Of a stretch of 64,000 nucleotides of DNA, positions 4,861-47,093 are shown one piece after another. The notes under the pieces are model-generated. The model saw nothing but the letters and a program-made list of their open reading frames with translations. It made no database searches and was not told the DNA's origin. The stretch is from the NCBI GenBank assembly GCA_021734445.1, contig JAIPIY010000002.1, positions 32,786 to 96,785 of the forward strand. Direction: 5' to 3'. The number at the start of each line of letters is the position of its first letter. The stretch's first letter is position 1. The stretch comes from Minisyncoccota bacterium (GTDB lineage Bacteria > Patescibacteriota > Minisyncoccia > Phycocordibacterales > UBA1006). Both the position numbers and the translations under genes were made by a program.

Positions 4861-5721
4861 TTATTCTTCCAAAATTATTGGTTCGTCGTTGGGCATAATT
4901 TCTTCGTACGTTAGATCCAGCAATCTTACAAAACGAATTTTTTCTGGATGTACGGGTAATCGCACATATGTTTTTTGAAATGGATCACGAGAATCAAAAG
5001 AAACTTTTTCAATCACACCCGCAACAAAAGGAGCGTTCGCGTACGAAACAACGTCGCCCTGTTCTACAGCAACATGTCGTGGAATTTCTAATTGCATTTG
5101 ATATCCACCCTTACCGCGCATCATCAATGCAATGGGTTCTTGTTCTTCATCAGAAGAGATAAACATTACTGGTGTATCCATGTCTGCATGAGATATTAAT
5201 GAGATAACTGAATAACGAGAATCAACCAAAGAAACTTTCCCAATTAATATTCCCGATTCAGAAACTGCTCCCTGCCCTACTATTACGTTATCTAATGAAC
5301 CTTTGTCTATAATCATAGTATCACGTGAGTACGATGATTTCGTATGCACCACACGCGCAATCAAAGAAGAAAGATTTGCATTATCCAAACCAACTAAATT
5401 TAATAATTCGTTATATTCTGATTCAATCACTGTTGCTTTGTCTAATAGTATTTGTTCTTCGGTAACACGTTTTTCCAATTGTATTAATCGATGCATCAAT
5501 TCTTTTTTTGGTAACAATGACAATGATTGAACACTGTTTTCATCATCTCCCTGAATCGAAGACCAGACCGGTGAAACCATACGTATCATCAATGATTGAA
5601 ACCAAATGGCAGTAGGCCGAAATCCTACCAAGAAAAGAACCAATCCCACCACAAAGACAGTCAACGGCCAAATGTTTTTTATTCGAGATGTTGTAGAATT
5701 ATGATCGCGCATGATCTTCAT
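4861..5721 (-). CDS. mreC: Rod shape-determining protein MreC
   Basis: N-terminal TM, a coiled-coil and a C-terminal beta domain. It lies immediately downstream of mreB and overlaps it by 23 nt. No mreD follows. Confidence 0.75.
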   Translation of the reverse strand: MKIMRDHNSTTSRIKNIWPLTVFVVGLVLFLVGFRPTAIWFQSLMIRMVSPVWSSIQGDDENSVQSLSLLPKKELMHRLIQLEKRVTEEQILLDKATVIESEYNELLNLVGLDNANLSSLIARVVHTKSSYSRDTMIIDKGSLDNVIVGQGAVSESGILIGKVSLVDSRYSVISLISHADMDTPVMFISSDEEQEPIALMMRGKGGYQMQLEIPRHVAVEQGDVVSYANAPFVAGVIEKVSFDSRDPFQKTYVRLPVHPEKIRFVRLLDLTYEEIMPNDEPIILEE

Positions 5722-6745
5722 GATACGCTAATACGTCACGATATTCATCCAGATTTTCTAAAACGATTCCAGCTCCACGTGCAACAGCCGACAAAGGATC
5801 ATCTGCAACGTGTACCGGTATTTTCAAAATACCTTGTAACAGAGTATCCAACCCACGGAACAATGCACCACCACCTGTCAGATACATACCTCGTTGCATA
5901 ATATCAGAAAGAATTTCAGGAGGAGTTGTTTCGATGACTTCTTTTGATCCTTCGATTAATTCATGTAATGAACTAGACATCGCTTCGCGAATATCGGTAT
6001 CAGTTAACAAAACTTCTCGGGGTAATCCAGTAATTAAATCGCGCCCTTTTACCGTTGCTTCCATAGGTTCCCCATCTTCTGAAACAGATCCAATAGCAAT
6101 TTTTACTTGTTCAGCAGTTTTTTCTCCAATGAGAATTTTAAATTCATCACGCAAATACGAAACAATATCTTGATTAAAACGATCACCTGCAATTTTCATA
6201 TTTTTTGATTGTACAATTCCACCCAATGCAATAACAGCAATATCACTGGTTCCACCACCAATATCAACCACCATAGACCCAACAGGTTCCTGAACGGGTA
6301 ACCGAATACCAATTGCTGCTGCCATAGGTTCTTCGATAATATACACTTCACGGGCACCTGCGTTTCGTGTCGCGTCATACACCGCACGACGTTCTACATT
6401 GGTAATACCAGATGGAACACCAACCACCACACGTGGACGGAAAAATTTCTTTGACATTTTTTCTGTCTTTCCAATCAAATACGACAACATTTCTTCGGTA
6501 ATTTCAAAATCAGAAATAACGCCATCCACCAAAGGTCGAATTGCCTTGATATGCCCAGGAGTACGTCCCAACATTTTTTTTGCTTCTACCCCTACCGCAA
6601 CAATTCTGTTTGTTTTTGTGTTCATTGCCACAATAGATGGTTCATTGATAATAATTCCGTGACCACGCAAATACACCAAAGTGTTTGCCGTACCCAAATC
6701 TATTCCTATATCATTTGAAAACTTTTTGTATAATTTTTCTAACAT
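5699..6745 (-). CDS. mreB: Actin-like rod-shape protein MreB
   Basis: DLGTANTLVY, the phosphate-2 and adenosine motifs DIGGGTSDIAVI, and LTGGGALFRGL. Full length, 348 aa. Confidence 0.95.
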   Translation of the reverse strand: MLEKLYKKFSNDIGIDLGTANTLVYLRGHGIIINEPSIVAMNTKTNRIVAVGVEAKKMLGRTPGHIKAIRPLVDGVISDFEITEEMLSYLIGKTEKMSKKFFRPRVVVGVPSGITNVERRAVYDATRNAGAREVYIIEEPMAAAIGIRLPVQEPVGSMVVDIGGGTSDIAVIALGGIVQSKNMKIAGDRFNQDIVSYLRDEFKILIGEKTAEQVKIAIGSVSEDGEPMEATVKGRDLITGLPREVLLTDTDIREAMSSSLHELIEGSKEVIETTPPEILSDIMQRGMYLTGGGALFRGLDTLLQGILKIPVHVADDPLSAVARGAGIVLENLDEYRDVLAYHEDHARS

Positions 6746-6763
6746 ATCTGTGTGCTTATCCTT

Positions 6764-8017
6764 CTAAACGGTAAATCGTGCTATAAATTCATCGTATGAT
6801 ACCAATTCACTATCTGCAGATGTTCTTTTTTTAATTTCGACTGATTCTTGTTGTACGGTTTTTGCGCTGACAACCACTCGGTACGGAATTCCCAACAAAT
6901 CAGCATCGGAAAATTTTTCTCCTGGAGAAACCCCTTTTCGATCATCAAACAAAACTTCAATATTTCTTTTTGTTAATTGTCCGTACAATTTTTCCGCCTG
7001 TGCGATAACTATTTCATCTTCTCCTAATACCAATACATGTATTTGAAACGGAGCAACTGATTCGGGCCAAACAAGACCCTTTTCATCAGAGAACTTTTCA
7101 GCGATGACACCAATCATACGGGTTATCCCAATACCATATGAACCAAGATGCACTGGTATTGTTTCTCCTTTTTCATTTTTGAAATACAGCCCCATTTTTT
7201 CACATTTTTCTGTGCCAAAATTAAAAATATTACCCACTTCTGCTGTTTTTACTTGTTCTAATTCTTCACGAGAGATATTCAAATCTTTCAAAGTTTTTTC
7301 GTTCAATACTTCTTCGTTTATTGCAATATTTTTTTCGCGATTGATATAAATAATATCTTCTCCTGCTTCACAAATTGTTTGAAATTCATGACTGAATTCA
7401 GTAAATGCACCACCCGCAGCAAAAGTAACAAACGTATCTTCACCAACACCTAATCTATCAAATACCTTTTTATATGCATCGATAGTTTTTTGATAAAACT
7501 TTTCATGCTGTTCTGCATCTGTCGAATAAGAATACATGTCTTTCATGACAAATTCTCTTCCACGCATCAAACCAGATTTTGCCCGTAATTCATTACGTAG
7601 TTTTGTCTGAAATTGATATACATATATCGGCAAGTCTCTGAAACTTGAAATATGATTTTTAATCATTTCCGTAATCGGTTCTTCATGTGACCATCCAAAC
7701 CCAACCTGTCCACCTGCATGCAATTCAGATTTAAACCAAATATCAACAATATCATCGCTCCAACGATCAGTAGAGGTCCAAACATCTTTTGATTGAATAC
7801 CTGTCATAATGAACTCTTGCCCTCCAAGGGCATTCATTTCTTCACGGATTATTTTTTTTATATTATCAACAACCCGGAAACCCAAAGGTAACAAGTCATA
7901 CGCTCCAGCCATTTCTTTGTGCACATACCCAGCACGGATTAATAATTGGGCATTTTTTGCCATCTCATCCGCTGGTGCTTCTTTTCGTGTTTTAGTAAAT
8001 AATTGGGTTTGTCTCAT
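6764..8017 (-). CDS. proS: Prolyl-tRNA synthetase, short bacterial form lacking the INS editing domain
   Basis: The N-terminus MRQTQLFTKTRKEAPADEMAKNAQLLIRAGY aligns with E. coli ProRS. Class II motifs and the anticodon-binding domain are present, but the ~180-aa editing insertion is absent (the product is only ~418 aa). The track ORF begins with TTG at 8071; the ATG at 8017 fits the homology. Confidence 0.9.
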   Translation of the reverse strand: MRQTQLFTKTRKEAPADEMAKNAQLLIRAGYVHKEMAGAYDLLPLGFRVVDNIKKIIREEMNALGGQEFIMTGIQSKDVWTSTDRWSDDIVDIWFKSELHAGGQVGFGWSHEEPITEMIKNHISSFRDLPIYVYQFQTKLRNELRAKSGLMRGREFVMKDMYSYSTDAEQHEKFYQKTIDAYKKVFDRLGVGEDTFVTFAAGGAFTEFSHEFQTICEAGEDIIYINREKNIAINEEVLNEKTLKDLNISREELEQVKTAEVGNIFNFGTEKCEKMGLYFKNEKGETIPVHLGSYGIGITRMIGVIAEKFSDEKGLVWPESVAPFQIHVLVLGEDEIVIAQAEKLYGQLTKRNIEVLFDDRKGVSPGEKFSDADLLGIPYRVVVSAKTVQQESVEIKKRTSADSELVSYDEFIARFTV

Positions 8018-8171: not shown

Positions 8172-8687
8172 ATGAGAACGATTCACTCACTCTCACCATT
8201 GTCTCAGAGTATCCTCGTCAGCAATCTTACATCTGGACGCATGGGCTACAGTTTTCGATTTCAAGGGGTTCTATTAGAGACTATTCCAGCATCTGAAAAA
8301 AGTCTACCAGTGCTAGAAATAATCGTAGACCTGGCAAAGGTTACCACGGAGAAATCTATACCTGTCCTGCTTCAAAGATTACCGGGGTGCAACAACCTTT
8401 CTGGTAATGAATTAATTCAGGAATCAATCAAATTACTTCCATCAGAAGAAGAGCTTCTTGGCGGAGTTATCCAACAAATCCTCATGTTAGAGCGTGGAAC
8501 TCAAACCATGGAGACTATGCTTGAAAAAATGCACCAAAAATTCTTCCTCTGCGCCAAAGACGATCATATTCAATTGGTCGAGTATGTTTCCCTTTTTAAT
8601 GTTTGGATGATTACCTCTAAGCCAATTGATCTTGACTATCAATTGGGAGGAAGTATGGGATCTTCTTTGCTTCTGGTAACGCAGTAA
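8172..8687 (+). CDS. Hypothetical protein
   Basis: ATG-initiated 171-aa ORF in the proS-rpsB gap with its own downstream intrinsic terminator (8707-8748). I recognise no domain. Confidence 0.4.
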   Translation: MRTIHSLSPLSQSILVSNLTSGRMGYSFRFQGVLLETIPASEKSLPVLEIIVDLAKVTTEKSIPVLLQRLPGCNNLSGNELIQESIKLLPSEEELLGGVIQQILMLERGTQTMETMLEKMHQKFFLCAKDDHIQLVEYVSLFNVWMITSKPIDLDYQLGGSMGSSLLLVTQ

Positions 8688-8748: not shown

Positions 8749-9060
8749 CAATCAATAAAAAGAAACTCTTTTCCATAATTCTTTTTTCAAACATACCATA
8801 CTTTGACGGTCGTCAAAACATGGTATTATTTACCAAAGCATTTTTGTCGAGTTACATATAATAAAAATGCATTACGGGACCTACCTGCCGGCAAAGGCAG
8901 GTAGTAATTAGAAACTACCTATTGCCTTTTTGTCAGTTTTTTGTTATTATGCAGTACAGCTTGTGCATTGATGCACAGGTATTTTATATACCGTGTATCT
9001 TATGTAGGCAAGAAGCCACAACAAGCCATTATTCAAAAATTGTATTTAGATTTGTATTTT

Positions 9061-37631: not shown

Positions 37632-37721
37632 ATGCGTATATACTATAGTATTTTTTACAAAATAACCACATAATAAGAACTATTTTTGTAATATTTAACC
37701 AAGATAAATAAAAACCCCTAC

Positions 37722-38315
37722 CTAATCGGTAAAGGCTTTGGAGAGTTTTTCTCCATATTTTTTTATAGACTCATTCACGACAGAGTAGCCACTTTCTGGT
37801 ATATCAATCTCTGGACCAATGGTTGGAATAGAAATATGATCATTAACCTTTTTTTGTGGAATTTTTCTTGACCCACCATAATCAACAAGGATAATACCTT
37901 TGTTCGTTTTTATCCAATCCTTGGAAAGAACAGTATGATCTCCTCCTGCAAATCTCATTTCATCTTCAGAAAGGACCCGCTTGAGTCTCCTCATAACTTC
38001 ATCAAAAGAGACAATCTCTCCCTCGATTTTCTCACTGATTACTAACCAGTTGGTTATCTTGATGTAAGATGGAGCCAAGAAATCCAAAGGAGTTTGCTTG
38101 TACAAATTAAATTCAGTTTTATTTGAATGCAAGCCAGCCTGAATGCGATTTAGTAAAAGCTTACCATGGTTTTTAGTAATACTTTTTTCTGTTTCGTCAA
38201 ACTCAAAAAGATAAGTCCATCTCACTCTTATATACGCAAAAATATCTCTTGGAAATTTTAAAGCGTACGGTCCAATAAAAATTACTTGTCTGGTTGTTCC
38301 GTCTTTTATGTTCAT
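37722..38315 (-). CDS. Hypothetical protein (197 aa)
   Basis: Unrecognised. A superficial kinase-like impression was rejected (see noticed_but_rejected). Confidence 0.45.
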   Translation of the reverse strand: MNIKDGTTRQVIFIGPYALKFPRDIFAYIRVRWTYLFEFDETEKSITKNHGKLLLNRIQAGLHSNKTEFNLYKQTPLDFLAPSYIKITNWLVISEKIEGEIVSFDEVMRRLKRVLSEDEMRFAGGDHTVLSKDWIKTNKGIILVDYGGSRKIPQKKVNDHISIPTIGPEIDIPESGYSVVNESIKKYGEKLSKAFTD

Positions 38316-38445
38316 TTTTTCTAAGATCTAATCTTGGTTTATTATACTACATCTATAATAAAAGTCAACATTAGAAATTCAAACAACTAAAAAGATTGAC
38401 TCGTATATCGTACATCAACTTTTTTTATAAAAATGAAAAGAATCT

Positions 38446-39459
38446 TTACATCTGCGAAGTAACGTATGCTTTTGATTTTGGTCCATAAATACCATCTGCA
38501 ACCAATCCAACTGATGCTTGATAATCAATCAATGCCTGTCGAGTAATAGGACCAAACGCCCCGTCAGCAATTACCCGAGATGCAGAACCAACACCCTTTT
38601 TAACAAGAAAATTTTGCAATATCACCACCTCGGGACCCCGAGACCCAACACGCAATGTGCCAGTTGATGACCCATACGATACCACTACAACAGGAGCAAC
38701 GATTGTTTCCATTGCATCTTGTGTTGCGTCAGGAAGATCAATATCTTGCGCCATTGCTGTGATAAAAACTGATCGAAATTTTGTTACCAAAAATTCTGCC
38801 AATTCATCTTCGTCATCTGCATCGTCAAGAATTTTTTCAAGATATTCTATCGTGTCATCCAAATCAAACACCTGAGTCAAACGTGGATAAGGATCTATTG
38901 CATCTCCATCTTCATCCCGGATTTCAAAATGCAAATGCGGTGCAGCGGCAACCGCGTTACCGGTGTGTCCAACATACCCAATCAAATCCCCTGCTTCTAA
39001 TACATCTCCTTCGTCAATATCAGCAAGTTCACTGAGGTGCATATACACAAATGATTCATCTCCGGGTACAGCCGTAGCAACGAACAAGCCTGATCCAGAT
39101 CCATCACCCATTCGGGTTACAACAGCATCAGTTGGAGAAACAATAGGTGTTCCTTCGGCAGCCATAATATCCAACCCTTCGTGTAAATGTCCTACACGTT
39201 GATCACCAAAATTTCTTGTAAGATTTTTCAGTCCCACCCCAAACAAAACAGGTATGGAAATGTCTTCTACTGGATCATTATCCAGATCTTCGATATTTTC
39301 TCGCATCTCACTGTTACCATAACGCCAATCTGATGTACCGCGTCCAAAACCATCACCGTCATCATAATCACGATGATTAGCAAACAAAGAAACCGGTGCA
39401 ACAACTAATAAACCAATCAAAGACAGATTTGCAACAAATTGTACGGTTTTTTTATTCAT
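38446..39459 (-). CDS. Secreted M23-family metallopeptidase with a C-terminal peptidoglycan-binding domain
   Basis: Signal/TM; HEGLDIMAAEGTPIVS plus GHTGNAVAAAPHLHFEIR (HxxxD...HxH); C-terminal PG_binding_1-like GSRGPEVVILQNFL...DGAFGPITRQALIDYQ...ADGIYGPKS. Confidence 0.85.
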   Translation of the reverse strand: MNKKTVQFVANLSLIGLLVVAPVSLFANHRDYDDGDGFGRGTSDWRYGNSEMRENIEDLDNDPVEDISIPVLFGVGLKNLTRNFGDQRVGHLHEGLDIMAAEGTPIVSPTDAVVTRMGDGSGSGLFVATAVPGDESFVYMHLSELADIDEGDVLEAGDLIGYVGHTGNAVAAAPHLHFEIRDEDGDAIDPYPRLTQVFDLDDTIEYLEKILDDADDEDELAEFLVTKFRSVFITAMAQDIDLPDATQDAMETIVAPVVVVSYGSSTGTLRVGSRGPEVVILQNFLVKKGVGSASRVIADGAFGPITRQALIDYQASVGLVADGIYGPKSKAYVTSQM

Positions 39460-39596
39460 GTATTCATTGTAGCACGTATATATCTTGTTATTTCATTATT
39501 GGTCAATATAAACTTATCTTTTTTCTTTTACGATTTTTAACAAAATAAACCCCAACAGGTGGTCCAGGCTATCGTTTCTTGCATTATCAGGAAATA

Positions 39597-39625
39597 TTGA
39601 CATTATACTATAAAAGTGCTATAAT
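39597..39625 (+). promoter_or_regulatory. Consensus sigma70 promoter with extended -10
   Basis: TTGACA (39597-39602), a 17-nt spacer, then TGcTATAAT (39617-39625). This is a perfect -35/-10 with the TGn extension, ~55 nt upstream of the 39681 ATG. Confidence 0.7.
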
Positions 39626-39680
39626 ATAATAAGACAGTGAACGCATATATCTGTCAATAATTGGACATTCACAATTGAAA

Positions 39681-40115
39681 ATGAATCTCATGAAAACTTT
39701 GAAAACCATTTGGGTAATTACAGCAATCGTTTCATCTGTTGGTAGCTTGGTATTGATTGGATTCTCCATATCAAAGCCAGAACTTCATCTTGTACAGTTT
39801 CTTATAAATGTCATGTTCAAATTGATGGCAATCACCAGCATCCTGCCGGCAATTACCTTCTTTTCACAACTCGCTTACCAAGGTGATTTTTCACACATGT
39901 CATCATCTCTTGTATGCGAGGTTTCTATTAAAATCATATCATTAGTTATGGCAATCTCGTTTCTTGGAGTGTTTTCAATCGTGATACCAATTCCATTTTT
40001 GGCAAATATGCATGCATTTCCGGTCGGACAATTACCAATTCATAACATTGTAATTTCTGCCGTTGTTGGAATCATCGGAGTTTTGGCCATAAGAAAATCG
40101 GGGGCTGTCCTGTAG
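39681..40115 (+). CDS. Small polytopic membrane protein, hypothetical
   Basis: ATG at 39681 (MNLMKTLKTIW...); the track start at 39675 is TTG. Four hydrophobic helices. A strong promoter lies upstream and a terminator downstream. Confidence 0.5.
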   Translation: MNLMKTLKTIWVITAIVSSVGSLVLIGFSISKPELHLVQFLINVMFKLMAITSILPAITFFSQLAYQGDFSHMSSSLVCEVSIKIISLVMAISFLGVFSIVIPIPFLANMHAFPVGQLPIHNIVISAVVGIIGVLAIRKSGAVL

Positions 40116-40130
40116 GACAATCCCAGCAAC

Positions 40131-40169
40131 CAAAAAGGTTGACACACACATCGTGCGTCAACCTTTTTT
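40131..40169. terminator. Bidirectional intrinsic terminator
   Basis: AAAAAGGTTGAC...GTCAACCTTTTTT. Confidence 0.7.
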
Positions 40170-40183
40170 ATTTATTATACCTA

Positions 40184-40402
40184 TTATAAATTTTTACTAT
40201 TTTCAGTTGGTTCTTTTTTATTCAAAGCAAAAGCAGAATATGCCAACAATAATGCACAAATAAATGCGACTACAGAAACACCTACAACAATTTCTGTTTC
40301 AGCAACGAATACTTGCCACCCCAAAATCGCACGTATCAGATGTAATGTTGCTACAATACAGAAAATAGCACCAGTGATATAATTAAAAGCTTTTTGATTC
40401 AT
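40184..40402 (-). CDS. Small membrane protein (72 aa), hypothetical
   Basis: Two hydrophobic helices with terminator-adjacent placement. Weak support. Confidence 0.35.
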   Translation of the reverse strand: MNQKAFNYITGAIFCIVATLHLIRAILGWQVFVAETEIVVGVSVVAFICALLLAYSAFALNKKEPTENSKNL

Positions 40403-40484
40403 ATGTATATAATAGCATATATTTATTAATTACAATGTAATTATTTCTCTTTTTTACACAAGATACTAGGGATTACAACCAATA

Positions 40485-42308
40485 TTAATTCACAAAATGT
40501 TTTAATTTTTCTCTACCCAGAATATGAAGCTCAATGATTGCGCGCGTCAAAGCCACATACAAAATATCTTTTTGTATTCTTTTTCTTTCTTCGATATATT
40601 CTGCCAAGGCGCCATAGTGATACACAACTTCGAAACTTTCTTTGTGTATTCCTACAATAAATACAATATCAAATTCCACCCCCTGTGATTCAACCATAGT
40701 CAGTACATGAATATTTTTTGTATCTGCGAATTCTTTTCTAAAATCGATCAGATACGCATCATTCTTTGCCAGAATACCAATACTTCCCTTTTCATATGTT
40801 GGTATACATTCCTTGATATATGCTATTTCTTTAGGAATGGTATCTATAATTTTTTCTGTAACCACCGGACCCTGTTTTAACCCATCAGGGATTTCAATGC
40901 TATACCCCAATGTTTGAATGTAATCCAATATATTTTTTGTATTTCTATAGACTTTGCTTAGTCGGATATTTCGTTCCAGAGAAACATCTTCGTCAATGTC
41001 TTTCCAATTTTTTATGGTCCCCAATTTCACCTGCTGAGCTATATCCCCCACATATACAGAAGATTGTGTTTTTTCTTGTAAACAATTTTTGAAAATACGT
41101 AACTGTTCAGGAAGATAGTTTTGGAATTCATCTACAATCACCAAAGAATATGATATTAATGTATTTTCAGTTCTGTTGGTCAGTTTATCTTTTACCCATA
41201 CTTGATATTCTCGTTTTATTTCAAATTTTTTATACTTTTCAAAATATAATTTCAAAAGAATAGTCAAATCAAATCTATCCAATTTTTTCTCTTTTTTCTG
41301 TCGTGCAAATAGTTTACTATTCTGTGCTGAAAAATAATCTTCGTAATGAGAAAATAACGCGGTAAAATAATTCCTACTCCAAACAGAAGAAGTATTTTCT
41401 CGAAGTGCCTTTAATTTTTGATATTCATAGAGATCCTTTTCTTCGTCGTTATCTCCATATCTTTCGACATACGTATATCCCACCATATTCAGTACCAAAA
41501 ACGCCCATTCTGAAAATGTGGTTATGGTTACGTCTCGTATTCCCAATCCTGGTAACAGGGTCGAGAAATAATCTTTGGTTCCAGTATCTTGTACAAAGAT
41601 AACAATAGAACGTGGAGGATACAATTCTGCAGTATCTGGTGCCTGGGTCAGATACGCCACGCGGTGCAAAGCCAACGTTGTTTTTCCGGAACCTGCGGGT
41701 CCTGAAATAATCATCGGACCCTGGTGACTGGCACGAATAACCTGATCTTGTGCTTTTTCCATCTGAGCTACAATTTCAGGAAGAGCAAATTCTGATTTTT
41801 GTTTTGTAAAATATTCTTGATAGATCAATTCGCGGGGTTTGTTTTCAGATTCCAAAGAAAAGAAAAGTAATGTACCATCGACAATCATATATTGTTCTTT
41901 TTGTTTAATGGTTATTGTTTTTGTTTTCCCGCTGGGAAGTTTGTATGACACCTGACCCGGAGATTCAAAACGTATCGCCGCCACCGGCGCAACCCAAGAA
42001 TAAATGGACTGTTCAGAAAATTCATGTTTAGCAAAAAAGTATTCTTCCTCTTGCCCCTGTTCTGTTATGATTTTGCATTTTATAAAATACGGTGATCCAT
42101 CCAGATGATCCAGTTCAACTACCCGTTTTTGTGCATTTGCGCGCAAATCCATATATACCACCTGATCTGCTGGTGCCATTTTACTGATCTGGGATAAACT
42201 GGTATTTGCCAATGCAGTAACATTATGCAATCTTTGTTGAATTTTTTCTTTGATAAAACCAATATGTGATTTTACCTGTTCTATAAGCTCTTGTTTATAT
42301 TTTTCCAT
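40485..42308 (-). CDS. helD: HelD-like (DNA helicase IV-like) UvrD-family SF1 ATPase
   Basis: N-terminal domain with the SPYF...EEEYFFAKHEF signature (cf. the HelD PYFGRIDF...YYIGK block), Walker A IISGPAGSGKTTLALHRVAYL, Walker B/DExx LVIVDEFQNYLPEQL, and a UvrD_C-like C-terminus (ESQGVEFDIVFIVG). Confidence 0.75.
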   Translation of the reverse strand: MEKYKQELIEQVKSHIGFIKEKIQQRLHNVTALANTSLSQISKMAPADQVVYMDLRANAQKRVVELDHLDGSPYFIKCKIITEQGQEEEYFFAKHEFSEQSIYSWVAPVAAIRFESPGQVSYKLPSGKTKTITIKQKEQYMIVDGTLLFFSLESENKPRELIYQEYFTKQKSEFALPEIVAQMEKAQDQVIRASHQGPMIISGPAGSGKTTLALHRVAYLTQAPDTAELYPPRSIVIFVQDTGTKDYFSTLLPGLGIRDVTITTFSEWAFLVLNMVGYTYVERYGDNDEEKDLYEYQKLKALRENTSSVWSRNYFTALFSHYEDYFSAQNSKLFARQKKEKKLDRFDLTILLKLYFEKYKKFEIKREYQVWVKDKLTNRTENTLISYSLVIVDEFQNYLPEQLRIFKNCLQEKTQSSVYVGDIAQQVKLGTIKNWKDIDEDVSLERNIRLSKVYRNTKNILDYIQTLGYSIEIPDGLKQGPVVTEKIIDTIPKEIAYIKECIPTYEKGSIGILAKNDAYLIDFRKEFADTKNIHVLTMVESQGVEFDIVFIVGIHKESFEVVYHYGALAEYIEERKRIQKDILYVALTRAIIELHILGREKLKHFVN

Positions 42309-42322
42309 AATTTTGTATTAAA

Positions 42323-42345
42323 AAAACCGCTTTTCGCGGTTTACG
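42323..42345. terminator. Palindromic terminator-like hairpin
   Basis: AAAAAACCGCTTTTCGCGGTTT. Confidence 0.4.
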
Positions 42346-42529
42346 AGATCCTATTTGGGCCGATTTTATTTGAGTAATAATGTAATCCAAGTAACATAAA
42401 AAACATCTTATCAAAAGATGCTTTTTAATGCAAGGGGCAACAATCCGTCAGTAACAATTATATTTTAAAAAGTACCCTAATTAACCCTTAACCTTCTAGT
42501 CTAATATTGACACTATAATCCTAGAAAAA

Positions 42530-43288
42530 TTAATTATTTAAACCACCTAACACAAGATTGATCATCATATCATCTTGGTCTTCCCTTTCATCGTTTTGTT
42601 CTTCCCGCTTCATTCTTTGATAAATTTTTTCCGTTTCTTCTTTAAATTTTTCACCTTGTTCACCTTTTAGCGTTTTGGCGTGTTCTATTCGTCTACCTAA
42701 AATTTTCATATTGCGTCGTCGCCAAAATTTTCTATCCTCTCTGTCTAATTCTCTTTTTGTCATCCTATCATAGTCACCAACCAAAATTCCCATTTCACGA
42801 ACTTCACCATTCCCATAAGTTGCCTTATAAAGAAATCTGTTATTTTCGGCAATCTCACCAAAGGGTACAACAAGACAAAATTCTGCAACTTCGAGACCCG
42901 TTGCTTTTTTATTTACAAGAGGTATTTCACTTATTATATATAGAAAATATTTACGGAATTGAAACCACTCATCTTTTGTGATTTCTTCAGGTAAATTATT
43001 TTCAATTAAAAAACTTTGTAATTCTTCTCTGAAAGTTTCTAGGGCAATTTTAGCTATACCTTCTGTGTTATCAAAATTAATTGTTTTTAGAAAATCAATA
43101 GCATCTTTTCTATCAAGTTTAGTATGTAAAACCCAACAACAATACATATATAAAGTAGAATATCTCTTAGAAGGAATTTGATCTAATTCTAACTTTTTCC
43201 TGATTTCACTAAGAATATAAATTACCTGTTTCTCTGAACGTATTAGAGATTTTAATTCTTTTGTGAGATTATTTAGTTTTTGATTCAT
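42530..43288 (-). CDS. Hypothetical protein with a charged C-terminus, on a low-GC segment
   Basis: Strongly AT-rich codon usage compared with its neighbours. C-terminal KR/E-rich region. No family recognised. Confidence 0.5.
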   Translation of the reverse strand: MNQKLNNLTKELKSLIRSEKQVIYILSEIRKKLELDQIPSKRYSTLYMYCCWVLHTKLDRKDAIDFLKTINFDNTEGIAKIALETFREELQSFLIENNLPEEITKDEWFQFRKYFLYIISEIPLVNKKATGLEVAEFCLVVPFGEIAENNRFLYKATYGNGEVREMGILVGDYDRMTKRELDREDRKFWRRRNMKILGRRIEHAKTLKGEQGEKFKEETEKIYQRMKREEQNDEREDQDDMMINLVLGGLNN

Positions 43289-43360
43289 GCAATGATTTTA
43301 ATATAAATTATTAAGTTTTATACTTATTATATTAACTACTGATGATAATTCTACTTAGAG

Positions 43361-44257
43361 TTAAGCCGAAACACAGCCATTACATGATGCAGGCATATTT
43401 AGAGTCTCGAACTTTCCTGTTGTATCAGCTGATTCATTATCACTTGTAGAATATATTTCAAAAGTGTATTTTGTATTTGGTTCAAGCTTAAACTCCAAAC
43501 TATGCTCTCTAGTATTTTCCGAAGGAGATTTTAGGGATTTTATTATTTGACTAGAGTCAGTTTTGTATATTTTTATCCTACTATCTGACTTGTAATTTGT
43601 TTCCCAGCTAAGTGTACACGTATCAGCCAGACAACCCTGTCTTGTTACTGTTATTTTCAGAGGGTTTGATTTTGTTGTAAAATTAAAATTTTGATCCTTC
43701 CATGCATTATTAGCAATAGCAGTGATTGTACCAATATAATATAAATCACTTTCCAAACCATCAATATCTACATAGTGTATTGTTCCAACACCACGCTTGG
43801 AAAAATAACTCTTACCTTCAAATAATATCTTTGACTCACTCGGAATATTTGTTTTCCAGTTTACTCTTACTGAATTTGATTCTTCATCAATTGAAACATC
43901 AGATATAGACAAATCAACGGTAGGAGAAATTACAACTATTGGAGTAGCGGGTGGGGTATAAAGAGATACAGCAGTTATTGTGGGTGTCGATTTTATAGGG
44001 ATAGAGGTTTTCTTTTCTTCAAAATTAACCTTAGGAGTAATTTCCATTTTATCTTCTTGTAAACTTCTTTCTTTTGATGATTCTTCTTCAACTGGTATAA
44101 CCAGAGTGGTTTGTTGTACTTGTTCTTTTGTTGAAACCTTTTTAGCCCATGGCCAATGCCATGTAAATGGATTCCACCATGCAGCAAAAGTAATTTGAGG
44201 TATTACTAAAACAATAAACAGGAACATAAAAATAGTTTTTTTCAAATGTTTAGTCAT
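43361..44257 (-). CDS. Secreted protein with fibronectin-III-like beta domains, on a low-GC segment
   Basis: Signal peptide (MTKHLKKTIFMFLFIVLVIPQITFA), a W-rich segment, a Pro/Thr linker, then two beta-rich modules (VRVNWKTN..., CTLSWETNYKS...TKYTFEIYSTS) reminiscent of FN3. Confidence 0.5.
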   Translation of the reverse strand: MTKHLKKTIFMFLFIVLVIPQITFAAWWNPFTWHWPWAKKVSTKEQVQQTTLVIPVEEESSKERSLQEDKMEITPKVNFEEKKTSIPIKSTPTITAVSLYTPPATPIVVISPTVDLSISDVSIDEESNSVRVNWKTNIPSESKILFEGKSYFSKRGVGTIHYVDIDGLESDLYYIGTITAIANNAWKDQNFNFTTKSNPLKITVTRQGCLADTCTLSWETNYKSDSRIKIYKTDSSQIIKSLKSPSENTREHSLEFKLEPNTKYTFEIYSTSDNESADTTGKFETLNMPASCNGCVSA

Positions 44258-44388
44258 ATATTTTTTCTCGAGATAATCTCAATATAATAATATTAACATA
44301 TTAAGAATTATACAACAATTATTATCTCTATCTGCCAGCTCTCTCTTTGTGGTCAGGAATAATTCAAAGTAGTTTTAATTTGCTCGTG

Positions 44389-44460
44389 TGACCCCACGGA
44401 GGATCGAACTCCGATTCTGAGAATGAGAATCTCATGTCCTAGCCATTAGACGACAGGGCC
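44389..44460 (-). tRNA. tRNA-Glu (anticodon CTC)
   Basis: Manual cloverleaf on the minus strand: acceptor GGCCCTG/TGGGGTC (with G-U pairs), D arm GTCT-AATGGCTA-GGAC, anticodon stem TGAGA/TCTCA with loop TTCTCAT, T arm CGGAG-TTCGATC-CTCCG. No encoded CCA. Confidence 0.75.
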
Positions 44461-44583
44461 TGAATAACATACCCAGTGTACGTATTTTTATGGTCTTTCG
44501 CAAGTATACTATATTATTATTTTCTTCTTTTTATTCTTTATTCCCTCTTTACTTTTTACTTCTTTCTCTTTACTATAAACCCT

Positions 44584-45045
44584 ATGAAATTACACATCCT
44601 GGCGATTGGCAAGAAAAAATCAGACTACGACGCTATGATTGCCGAATACCAAAAACGCATCGTGTCCCCTTTTTCCCTATCGTTGGAAATTATAGAACCA
44701 TTGGGAATTGATAACCCCACACAATGCAGAACAAAAGAATCTGAAAAACTGGCAACCAAACTACAACCCGGAGATTATATAATTGCATTAGATGAAACTG
44801 GTAAAGATTTTACCACTGTTGCATTTTCACATCATATCGAAAAACAAATGCATACGGGTATCAAAAGAATGGTATGCATTATCGGCGGTGCATATGGCAT
44901 TGATGCACAATTGCAATCACAGGCACATTTGGTACTACGATTGGGTTCTTTTACGTTACCCCACGAACTGGCACGTTTGGTTTTAGCAGAACAATTGTAT
45001 CGTGTTACCAATTTACTGGGTGGTGGAAAATATCATCATGTATAA
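44584..45045 (+). CDS. rlmH: 23S rRNA (pseudouridine1915-N3)-methyltransferase RlmH (SPOUT)
   Basis: MKLHILAIGKK...DETGK...CIIGGAYGID...RLGSFTLPHELARLVLAEQLYR matches the YbeA/RlmH family. The ATG at 44584 replaces the track's low-complexity upstream extension from 44476. Confidence 0.9.
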   Translation: MKLHILAIGKKKSDYDAMIAEYQKRIVSPFSLSLEIIEPLGIDNPTQCRTKESEKLATKLQPGDYIIALDETGKDFTTVAFSHHIEKQMHTGIKRMVCIIGGAYGIDAQLQSQAHLVLRLGSFTLPHELARLVLAEQLYRVTNLLGGGKYHHV

Positions 45046-45048
45046 AAA

Positions 45049-45082
45049 AGCCCCCACCACTGATTAGTGACGGGGGCTTTTC
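45049..45082 (+). terminator. Intrinsic terminator
   Basis: AGCCCCC...GGGGGCT stem followed by TTTT. Confidence 0.6.
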
Positions 45083-45242
45083 TGGCCCAGAATATCCTTA
45101 TGACGGAATTCTTAATCGAAAAAGGAAATTCTTTCCCAAAGATTTTTTCTGACCAGAAAATTTGGCATGCATCCGTGCCAGGATGCGAAAATGTTGTCTT
45201 GTTGATACATTAGACGGTAATTTCTTCATGTGCGTAGTTTGA

Positions 45243-46466
45243 ATGTTTAAAGCCATCATACAATATTTCTTATACAACAGTCAACCATCCAAGCAACCCT
45301 ATGAAACCATCCCGAATCATAGTATGATGGACAACATGTTACGATTCATTACCCCTATACTATTTTTATTCACACTGATCAGTATTATCGCTCTTGGTTT
45401 TTTTATTTCATTAGTTATTCTTCGTTTTTTTGGGATTATCTCAAATCCATATTTATTTCGCGGATTAGCATTGTTGGGTATATTAATGCCGATTATTATG
45501 GCAGGGACCATGACGCTGGGTGGTGTTATATATCATCCCATAAACAATTTTTTTAATACCCTATCTGGTGGGTGGCTCACTTTTGTGAATTTCCTCTTTA
45601 TTGCATCGATTGGATTATCGTTGGTGTGGTTAATGGTGAATAAATTAGGTTACACAATTCCAGAGCAAATTATTGGGTATGGTATTTTATTTATTGGGAT
45701 TGGTGTCAGCATATTTTCTTTTTATAATGCTTCACGGTATGTTGTTCGCCATATTCCATTTTCTGAACATAATCTACCAGAATCTTTGTACGGTAAAAAA
45801 ATTGCCTTGGTGTCAGATATTCATCTGGGTATGATTCGTAAAAAATCTTTTTTGGAACGTATTACCAAAAGCATCATGGCAGAACAACCAGATATGATAT
45901 TGATCCCCGGAGATTTAATCGACGGACCTAAAATACCCTATGCTGATTTTCTATCTCCATTAGGTACATTATCTGCAGCAGATGGTATTTATTTCACCCC
46001 TGGAAACCACGAACAATATAACAAAGAAAATGCATTATTCTACGCATCTATACCATCCAATGTCACTACATTGATTGATGCAACCCATATTATTCCTGAA
46101 TTAGGTATTCAAATTGTAGGAATTGATTATGCGCGCGAATCTGTAGAAGAAACCAAAAACAGAATCACTCGTTCTGGATATACATCAGAAATGCCCAGCA
46201 TCACCCTGTTACACGACCCGAAAAATATGCAGGCAATGTCCGATGCAGGAATGTCATTTGTAGTTTCAGGCCATACACATGGTGGACAATTCTTTCCTGC
46301 CAGCATTTTGGTAAAACTTATTTATAAACAATACACACGTGGTTTTGCAGTAACAGGAACCATGCCTAGTTTTACAACAATAGGTGTAGGAACAGCCTTG
46401 TCGCCAGCCCGATTAGAATCGCGTCCAGAAATTATTATCTTCACGATAGAAAAACCAATGCAGTAA
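45243..46466 (+). CDS. Membrane-bound calcineurin-like metallophosphoesterase
   Basis: N-terminal TM helices, then VSDIHLG, PGDLIDG, GNHE and SGHTHGGQ motifs. The start codon is uncertain (internal Met candidates exist). Confidence 0.8.
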   Translation: MFKAIIQYFLYNSQPSKQPYETIPNHSMMDNMLRFITPILFLFTLISIIALGFFISLVILRFFGIISNPYLFRGLALLGILMPIIMAGTMTLGGVIYHPINNFFNTLSGGWLTFVNFLFIASIGLSLVWLMVNKLGYTIPEQIIGYGILFIGIGVSIFSFYNASRYVVRHIPFSEHNLPESLYGKKIALVSDIHLGMIRKKSFLERITKSIMAEQPDMILIPGDLIDGPKIPYADFLSPLGTLSAADGIYFTPGNHEQYNKENALFYASIPSNVTTLIDATHIIPELGIQIVGIDYARESVEETKNRITRSGYTSEMPSITLLHDPKNMQAMSDAGMSFVVSGHTHGGQFFPASILVKLIYKQYTRGFAVTGTMPSFTTIGVGTALSPARLESRPEIIIFTIEKPMQ

Positions 46467-46469
46467 CCT

Positions 46470-47093
46470 ATGTTCGATGATTCTTTTCTTCATATTCTCG
46501 ATCAAGCCGAAGACCAAGCAAAAAATTTGGTATGGTATTCCCCTTCGCAAATAGAACGTGGAGATCATCTGAATGACGATCGGACAAAGGGTATGCGCCC
46601 ATGGAGTATCTCCCGAAAAACCGGTGAACTATTACACAATCTGGTGATTACAGAAAAACCAAAAATTATTGTCGAATTGGGAACCAGTATTGGATATTCT
46701 ACATTATGGTTGGCACATGCCGTACAACAACATAACGGACATATTCATACACTGGAAAGAATTCCAGAAAAAACGGCTATCGCAAAAGAACATATCCAGA
46801 ATACGAGTCTGCAAGATTCGGTTAGTTTTTATAATGGAGAGATTATCGATATATTACGTGAACAAAAATTTCAACCTATTGATATGTTATTTATGGATGC
46901 AGATAAAAGCAACTATGTTATGTATTTAGAATTCTTGCGACCGTATTTGTCACCCTATGCGATTATTATTATCGATAACGTACTGTCACATCCAGAAAAA
47001 ACAGAACATGCTGTGAATTGGTGCAAAGAACATATCGCACAAGAATCAAACATATTCCCCACCGAAAGCGGTATCTTTTTTTGTAAAACATAA
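46470..47093 (+). CDS. Class I SAM-dependent O-methyltransferase (family 3, caffeoyl-CoA OMT-like)
   Basis: IIVELGTSIGYSTLWLA (motif I), LFMDADKSNY, IIIDNVL. Start overlaps the previous stop. Confidence 0.8.
   Translation: MFDDSFLHILDQAEDQAKNLVWYSPSQIERGDHLNDDRTKGMRPWSISRKTGELLHNLVITEKPKIIVELGTSIGYSTLWLAHAVQQHNGHIHTLERIPEKTAIAKEHIQNTSLQDSVSFYNGEIIDILREQKFQPIDMLFMDADKSNYVMYLEFLRPYLSPYAIIIIDNVLSHPEKTEHAVNWCKEHIAQESNIFPTESGIFFCKT

Follow-up and report, generated by a model that had tools for sequence, protein, structure and literature searches.

Were the two AT-rich genes that lie between a tRNA-Glu gene and a HelD-like helicase gene in a Candidatus Paceibacteria genome inherited together with their neighbours, or did they arrive from elsewhere? 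The question is raised by a 64-kb stretch of contig JAIPIY010000002.1, hereafter the window, in which a first-pass annotation had pointed to these genes as a possible genomic island at the 3' end of the tRNA. We refer to the tRNA-proximal gene as gene A and to the helicase-proximal gene as gene B. Our results indicate that the segment at 42436–44387 is probably a horizontally acquired, integrase-less islet, which occupies a strain-variable slot between tRNA-Glu(CTC) and helD in this genome of the candidate phyla radiation (CPR).

The strongest indication comes from a close relative. The helicase was used to scan one genome per species (GTDB), which yielded 13 loci. Locus L011 (CAZAZY010000003.1) is the sole close relative, with a helicase that is 97% identical in amino acid sequence and flanking DNA that is about 90–97% identical in nucleotide sequence. 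Only L011 exceeded 70% helicase identity in the genome scan, none exceeded 75% in a metagenome scan, and an exact look-up of rlmH for further relatives gave no match. The window and L011 are both contigs of metagenome-assembled genomes. They have a common backbone on either side of the slot, with atpD-atpC-O-methyltransferase-metallophosphoesterase-rlmH-tRNA-Glu(CTC) on one side and helD-small72-memb146-M23 peptidase on the other. Gene A and gene B have no match in L011 (tblastn). In place of the 1952 nt of the window, the L011 slot contains ~2.5 kb with two unrelated genes. One encodes a 263-aa DUF5677 protein; the other is on the opposite strand, and its product of 516 aa combines five treble-clef zinc fingers of the DUF4379 type with homology to CapR. 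The GC content of the L011 slot is 29.8%, versus a locus mean of 37.3% (standard deviation (sd) 1.8). Differing AT-rich cargo enclosed by conserved flanks means that the contents of the slot, from tRNA-Glu to the helD leader, can be replaced, in line with the suspected island at the tRNA-Glu 3' end.

The features of the locus are listed below in their 5' to 3' order on the minus strand, followed by the gene on the 5' side of the tRNA.

44388–44460, minus strand: tRNA-Glu(CTC), called by ARAGORN and scoring 50.5 bits against Rfam RF00005; borders the variable slot on its proximal side.
44258–44387, minus strand: AT-rich spacer from the tRNA 3' end to the start of gene A; strain-specific, without similarity to L011.
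43361–44257, minus strand: gene A, 298 aa, predicted surface or secreted protein (Pfam fn3, AlphaFold2 (AF2) model, Foldseek).
43289–43360, minus strand: AT-rich spacer of 72 nt between gene A and gene B, read from the sequence.
42530–43288, minus strand: gene B, 252 aa, predicted cytoplasmic protein of an unannotated family (open reading frame, AF2 model).
42436–42529, minus strand: distal end of the strain-specific segment, 94 nt past the stop codon of gene B (blastn and MAFFT against L011).
42309–42435, minus strand: helD leader, backbone, 127 nt, ~97% identical to L011 (also covered by a terminator scan).
40485–42308, minus strand: HelD-like SF1 helicase, 607 aa, backbone and outside the islet; 97% identical in amino acid sequence in L011.
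44581–45045, plus strand: rlmH (SPOUT methyltransferase), backbone on the 5' side of the tRNA; Pfam PF02590 with E 2.7e-40, 98.7% identical in amino acid sequence in L011.

The coordinates first assigned to the two genes proved exact in an open reading frame (ORF) check. Their placement relative to the tRNA had been misread, however. Rather than ending just before it, the genes share its orientation, and the start codon of gene A (44257) lies 130 nt past the tRNA 3' end. Gene B follows after the 72-nt spacer and is separated from the helicase by 221 nt. On the helicase side, window 40483–42435 aligns to L011 11826–9874 at 94.6% (blastn, MAFFT). Identity in this left flank is uniformly 92–97% up to 42435, 127 nt upstream of helD, where homology stops sharply. 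Similarity to L011 resumes at the tRNA, with window 44388 corresponding to L011 7354. Within the helD leader, a T-run comes after an AT-rich hairpin at the breakpoint, and the terminator scan found a terminator-like hairpin at 42342–42324. The same scan found no terminator-like site between gene A and gene B (43289–43360).

Conserved flanks with differing cargo, a criterion for a hotspot, are found here in two genomes (n = 2), and presence/absence polymorphism between close relatives is found with one relative only. The other helicase loci (12 from genomes and 16 from metagenomes) have helicase identities of 61–75%, lack the synteny of the window and have no tRNA-Glu upstream. Neither gene A nor gene B adjoins the helicase in any of them. 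These more distant loci are unusable as an outgroup.

Base composition sets the segment apart in part. Its GC content of 30.6% is below that of all other 1952-nt stretches of the window (mean 37.2%, sd 1.8, minimum 32.2%; z ~ −3.7), where the total GC is 37.0%, and its dinucleotide signature is within the top 1.6%. The AT-richness noted in the first-pass annotation therefore stands for the segment, which has the lowest value, but it is weaker per gene. Among 55 ORFs with a mean GC of 0.368 (sd 0.030), gene B has 0.302 (z −2.2) and gene A 0.328 (z −1.3). Measured against all remaining window genes pooled, the synonymous codon usage of both genes is normal. The islet is thus unusually AT-rich yet in the codon dialect of its host. 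Composition alone would not carry the case for an island, because codon usage is unremarkable.

Homology comparisons lent support to the island proposal, in that both protein families recur at tRNA or tmRNA 3' flanks or near recombinase, restriction-modification or prophage-type genes. In L001, tRNA-Gln(CTG) is followed by a Shedu-type SduA gene, 5 nt downstream of it by a gene B homologue (73% identical), and then by a large serine recombinase, DNA methylases and other island genes. In L003, the order is tRNA-Arg(GCG), a tRNA pseudo-copy, an unrelated 443-aa gene and a gene B homologue. The homologue in L041 lies 33 nt past tRNA-Gln(TTG), the one in L006 is truncated and located near tRNA-Thr, a tyrosine integrase, HsdM and SduA, and the one in L040 is on a 2.6-kb contig without a tRNA. 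A distant relative of gene B is found in a putative 8.5-kb tRNA-Gly(TCC) island (L042, 240–8831), where the distal end bears an intergenic direct repeat (8814–8831) that matches the tRNA-Gly 3' end and the adjoining 5 nt at 17/18 positions; its score is barely above the shuffle maximum (31 versus 30). This relative adjoins a Ppl/AriA-type ABC ATPase and a T5orf172/MUG113 nuclease, and the island further contains many hypothetical genes and an APH kinase, with no integrase called.

The homologues of gene A show comparable surroundings. One starts 44 nt after tRNA-Leu(GAG) in L007, another abuts the 3' end of tmRNA in L010, and those in L008 and L009 are near a DpnII restriction-modification system, a prim-pol gene and a serine recombinase. 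In L045 the neighbours are HTH and M78 peptidase genes. When the window is left out, 5 of the 10 homologue contexts examined lie within 1.6 kb on the 3' side of a tRNA or tmRNA end, versus 8.7% expected from the base fraction in helicase-anchored control loci (binomial P = 8.6e-4).

In L003, at 6415–6568, tRNA-Arg(GCG) is followed after 28 nt by the pseudo-copy, a degraded 53-nt duplicate of the 3' part of this tRNA that runs from its anticodon stem as far as CCA. The alignment score of the copy, 54, compares with a shuffle maximum of 27, and the copy is a scar of tRNA-targeted recombination.

Both families are biased towards tRNA flanks, recombinases are present in L001 and L006, and L003 and L042 contain partial tRNA repeats, all of which argues for integrative elements that target tRNA 3' ends. 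The cargo probably arrived via such elements. The recombinase module and the att (attachment-site) repeat would later have been lost, or the recombinase would have acted in trans. What remains would be two expressed genes, each with homologues that show protein-level conservation. Since codon usage matches that of the host, the cargo probably came from other AT-rich Paceibacteria.

Several observations weigh against this reading. With a single close relative, the direction and the number of events are not fixed. Gene-sized indels between the window and L011 that are not linked to a tRNA (window 37648–38419, L011 5310–6001) imply that gene flux between these genomes is not confined to the tRNA. 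A Pfam scan of the nine ORFs at 38446–47093 found no integrase or recombinase, the cargo genes are not recombinases, and a repeat finder reported no att direct repeat, so that the absence of both, remarked upon at the outset, was confirmed. Alignments of the tRNA to 42309–42529, to the spacers, to the neighbourhood and to both strands of the whole window all scored within the shuffled range, leaving no partial tRNA copy above it. The L011 slot is likewise without an integrase and without a tRNA repeat, and a conserved terminal motif that could mark an element end was absent downstream of the gene B homologues. The third-position GC content (GC3) of gene B (0.194) and gene A (0.207) is not outlying (mean 0.277, sd 0.056), as four further ORFs in the window have values of 0.200 or less. 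The synonymous codon usage of the two genes has z-scores of +0.46 and −0.18, and their AT-richness is owed partly to amino acid composition and spacers. Moreover, profiles of both families found no relatives in IMG/VR, gene B and a distant member of its family had no tblastn match in a phage collection, and the distant member had none in a plasmid collection.

A phage or plasmid origin of the islet was considered and rejected, with these collection searches empty. The 3' half of the tRNA had no exact match in viral contigs, and a PHROGs search gave no match.

The tRNA itself is a further point against the integrative-element reading. The tRNA-Glu(CTC) genes of the window (44388–44460) and L011 (7282–7356) differ at 20 of 73 positions (73% identical). 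The anticodon stem is wholly different (TGAGA/TCTCA versus AATCC/GGATT), the acceptor stem has compensatory changes, and CCA is encoded in the L011 gene only. Both are good tRNAs by score, with 50.5 bits for the window and 60 bits for L011. The differences extend over the full length, including the 5' positions 3, 6 and 7. Integration at a 3'-end att site does not explain this, because it would leave positions 3, 6 and 7 unchanged. The tRNA-Glu allele appears to have been exchanged, either jointly with the cargo downstream of it or separately.

An alternative explanation might therefore be that the cassette was replaced by homologous recombination through the conserved flanks, without site-specific integration, from a divergent Paceibacteria donor with the same rlmH-tRNA-Glu-X-helD layout. 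A single event would then have swapped the tRNA allele and the cargo jointly, and the slot would be akin to core-gene-flanked hotspots. We consider this possible rather than probable. It is consistent with the rise in identity from the tRNA body (73%) to the tRNA promoter region (~86%, 38/44) and to the genes farther out (92–97%), with the lack of an integrase and an att repeat, and with a gene-sized indel (L011 6516–7234) directly across the tRNA. It also fits the observation that hotspots in E. coli and Pseudomonas are often without an identifiable mode of mobilisation (PMC10121019). The abrupt left junction counts somewhat against it, as a tract from a divergent donor should leave raised divergence in helD or its leader, and none is seen. 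Furthermore, homologous replacement leaves unexplained why homologues of both genes occur at many different tRNA 3' ends.

For the origin of the cargo we favour tRNA-targeting integrative elements over a homologous swap, whereas for the allele now present a swap by homologous recombination, or co-transfer of the tRNA allele, is plausible. The degraded remnant suggested by the first-pass annotation is accordingly one of two live mechanisms, cassette replacement by recombination being the other. The likelihoods that we assign to these explanations overlap and do not sum to one, because both mechanisms treat the segment as acquired cargo.

It is distinctly unlikely that the two genes are native and vertically inherited, that they owe their AT-richness to spacers and amino acid composition (a Lys/Glu/Asn/Ile-rich tail and a low-complexity linker), and that the sister genome lost or replaced them. 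Their synonymous codon usage is typical of the window, their GC3 values are inside the spread of the other ORFs, and homologues of both proteins are found in related CPR lineages only, all of which would suit native genes. Yet, the L011 slot holds two other, equally AT-rich genes, and the other genome and metagenome helicase loci have no gene A, gene B or tRNA-Glu beside the helicase. In addition, close homologues with 60–80% identity occur in unrelated contexts at other tRNAs.

Least probable is a functional two-gene module, for example of a defence or toxin type, in which the FN3 protein and gene B would act jointly: both genes point the same way, the 72-nt spacer that separates them has no terminator, and gene B homologues trail a ~450-aa gene by 3–5 nt in L001 (SduA) and L003, but this reading is largely refuted by the finding that gene A and gene B homologues occur together in no other context examined, and it is further opposed by upstream partners of gene B that are mutually unrelated, by the occurrence of gene B alone in L041 and without an SduA-type neighbour in L040, by the lack of a PADLOC match for either protein, and by the predicted export of gene A versus the predicted cytoplasmic location of gene B. 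The lack of co-occurrence and the mutually unrelated upstream genes indicate that gene A and gene B are independent passengers, not a module.

What do these passengers encode? Gene A had been described as a secreted, W-rich FN3-like protein, and this description was borne out. It matches Pfam fn3 (PF00041) with E 2.5e-6 and 28 bits, against a gathering cut-off of 25, and the AF2 model contains two beta-sandwich FN3 domains at residues 116–194 and 202–284, with a predicted local distance difference test (pLDDT) score >90 over 116–284. The top Foldseek matches in the PDB are all tandem FN3 structures (best E 1.4e-7). In the model, the N-terminal helix at residues 3–28, which has an A-x-A-type site at its end, resembles a signal peptide or anchor, and residues 37–98 form a disordered linker. 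The C-terminal tail contains Cys. A WWNPFxW motif at residues 27–37 (window 44179–44147) directly follows the predicted signal peptide. Gene A has 14 homologues, and the motif is conserved in an alignment of 12 family members. The model suggests that gene A would be a surface-exposed binding protein, with which an episymbiont might plausibly adhere to or contact its host cell.

The longer form of the motif, WWNPF(T/S)W(x)WPW, is present in all full-length members of the gene A family, including those of L007, L008, L010 and L045. In 518 kb of sampled CPR sequence, a WWNPFxW-type motif was found in no ORF outside this family. The motif could be a sorting or anchoring signal.

Gene B is less easily placed. 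Its AF2 model (pLDDT 79) consists of a helical N-terminal domain (residues 1–120), a small three-stranded sheet (134–169) and a long charged helical hairpin (175–246), the last of which corresponds to the highly charged tail reported earlier. Fold searches match coiled coils only. Close homologues of gene B number only 8. When 1.84 billion representatives of clusters defined at 50% identity were searched with a profile, the family comprised 1190 clusters at E<=1e-3, of which 369 reached E<=1e-10. The majority of these matches cover only the N-terminal domain, and non-CPR bacteria are included. Residues Y24, K31, W52, H55 and W108 are invariant in an alignment of 35 family members, and these 35 sampled sequences had no match in Pfam, NCBIfam, PHROG, PADLOC or PDB sequences.

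The neighbours of gene B suggest a role tied to mobile or defence islands. Behind four tRNAs (Glu, Gln-CTG, Arg and Gln-TTG), gene B closes a short unit of the form 'tRNA - variable gene - gene B', and this recurring last position would fit a new component of tRNA-flank mini-islands. We consider such a component, either an immunity or counter-immunity factor beside diverse defence nucleases or a factor that maintains or targets tRNA-flank cassettes, rather unlikely. A related possibility is that the tRNA allele travels with these cassettes, to which the 27% divergence of tRNA-Glu points.

Shedu (SduA, DUF4263/PF14082), which is described as a single-gene system, was considered as a fixed partner of gene B. 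An SduA-type gene is located beside the gene B homologue in L001 and in the island with the truncated homologue in L006. In contrast, gene B also occurs without it, as no SduA-type gene is beside gene B in L003, L040, L041 or the window, and the proteins scanned in the window contain no DUF4263 (PF14082) domain. The upstream partners in L001 and L003 are unrelated, the SduA-type protein and the 443-aa protein being dissimilar (E 0.17). The pairing was therefore rejected.

How does the islet compare with known systems? Like tRNA- and tmRNA-linked genomic islands, for which a classification of tRNA integration sites is available (Williams, 2002, as cited in PMC10121019), it begins at a tRNA 3' end, has a low GC content as a segment, albeit with normal synonymous codon usage, and is missing in the sister genome. 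Relatives of its cargo are found in tRNA-linked islands that contain recombinases of the serine or tyrosine type and partial repeats of the tRNA (L001, L003, L006, L042). Unlike these islands, it has neither an integrase nor an att direct repeat, measures just 2 kb with two genes, and adjoins a tRNA-Glu that is divergent along its whole length and not merely 3' of a crossover.

The islet also resembles core-gene-flanked hotspots. In E. coli, 18 of the 41 hotspots that carry defence genes are in tRNA loci (Hochhauser et al., 2023; PMC10121019), and in the richest of them (#37) no mobile genetic element was detectable in 68% of cases (PMC10121019). Comparable core defence hotspots are known from Pseudomonas (Johnson et al., 2023; PMC10250203). 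Similarly, rlmH/tRNA-Glu and helD bracket interchangeable cargo without visible mobilisation, the L011 cargo has domains of the conflict-system type (DUF4379/CapR, DUF5677), and relatives of gene B accompany Shedu, restriction-modification genes and defence-type ABC ATPases. The differences are that the cargo is no recognised defence system, as PADLOC matched neither of the two window genes and neither of the two in the L011 slot, that diversity is documented in two genomes only, and that one cargo gene encodes a surface FN3 protein instead of an immunity gene. A small integrase-less variable cassette beside a tRNA is a familiar feature of bacterial genomes, and the finding is ordinary in kind.

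The surroundings of the islet show further differences from L011. Window 37648–38419 (772 nt) contains a 197-aa ORF (37722–38315, minus strand) without a Pfam or PADLOC match, and L011 has 58 nt in its place. Conversely, L011 has an extra gene for a 250-aa VTT/DedA-like membrane protein between tRNA-Glu and rlmH (6516–7234) and an extra 194-aa DUF3050-like ORF between rlmH and the metallophosphoesterase gene (5310–6001), both of which the window lacks. Counting the tRNA slot, gene-sized differences occur at four points in ~20 kb.

A 146-aa membrane protein adjoining helD (39675–40115, plus strand) is only 45% identical in amino acid sequence to its L011 counterpart. The surrounding region (39583–40404) is 76% identical in nucleotide sequence to L011, and its neighbours on both sides are 93–97% identical. 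The codon usage of the gene is atypical (z −2.2), which gives it the look of an allele that is hyper-divergent or was replaced. A 171-aa ORF at 8172–8687 (plus strand) deviates more than any other in the window in its synonymous codon usage (z −3.6) and has a high GC3 of 0.39; it may be a spurious call or foreign DNA.

The best NCBIfam match of the helicase is HelD_BACSU (E 3.6e-36, 124 bits), which is below the equivalog cut-off of 419 and spans residues 58–268, including the N-terminal domain. The closest solved structure is HelD of B. subtilis (PDB 6wvk_H, E 9e-27). In seven loci of more distant Paceibacteria, a HelD-like helicase gene is located 0.15–1.2 kb downstream of a tRNA gene. This is tRNA-Ser(GGA) in L014, L016, L020, L022 (inverted), L025 and L034, and tRNA-Trp in L017. 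Hence, helD itself tends to occupy tRNA 3' flanks across Paceibacteria. Two intergenic copies of a 53-nt element, 77% identical to each other, were found at 38376–38428 and 40119–40171. Both form a hairpin (AAAAAGrTTGAC...GTCAACyTTTTTT) bordered by A- and T-runs, and the pair looks like related bidirectional terminators.

Our results document a hotspot with exact breakpoints in a CPR/Paceibacteria genome; a targeted literature search found no study of tRNA-linked hotspots in CPR. Beyond this, the interest of the locus lies in the tRNA-Glu allele difference, in the gene B family and in a strain-specific FN3 protein in an episymbiotic lineage. Gene B points to a large unannotated family that travels beside tRNAs in islands with defence-type genes. 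Strain-specific tandem-FN3 surface proteins such as gene A could mediate the attachment of episymbionts to their hosts.

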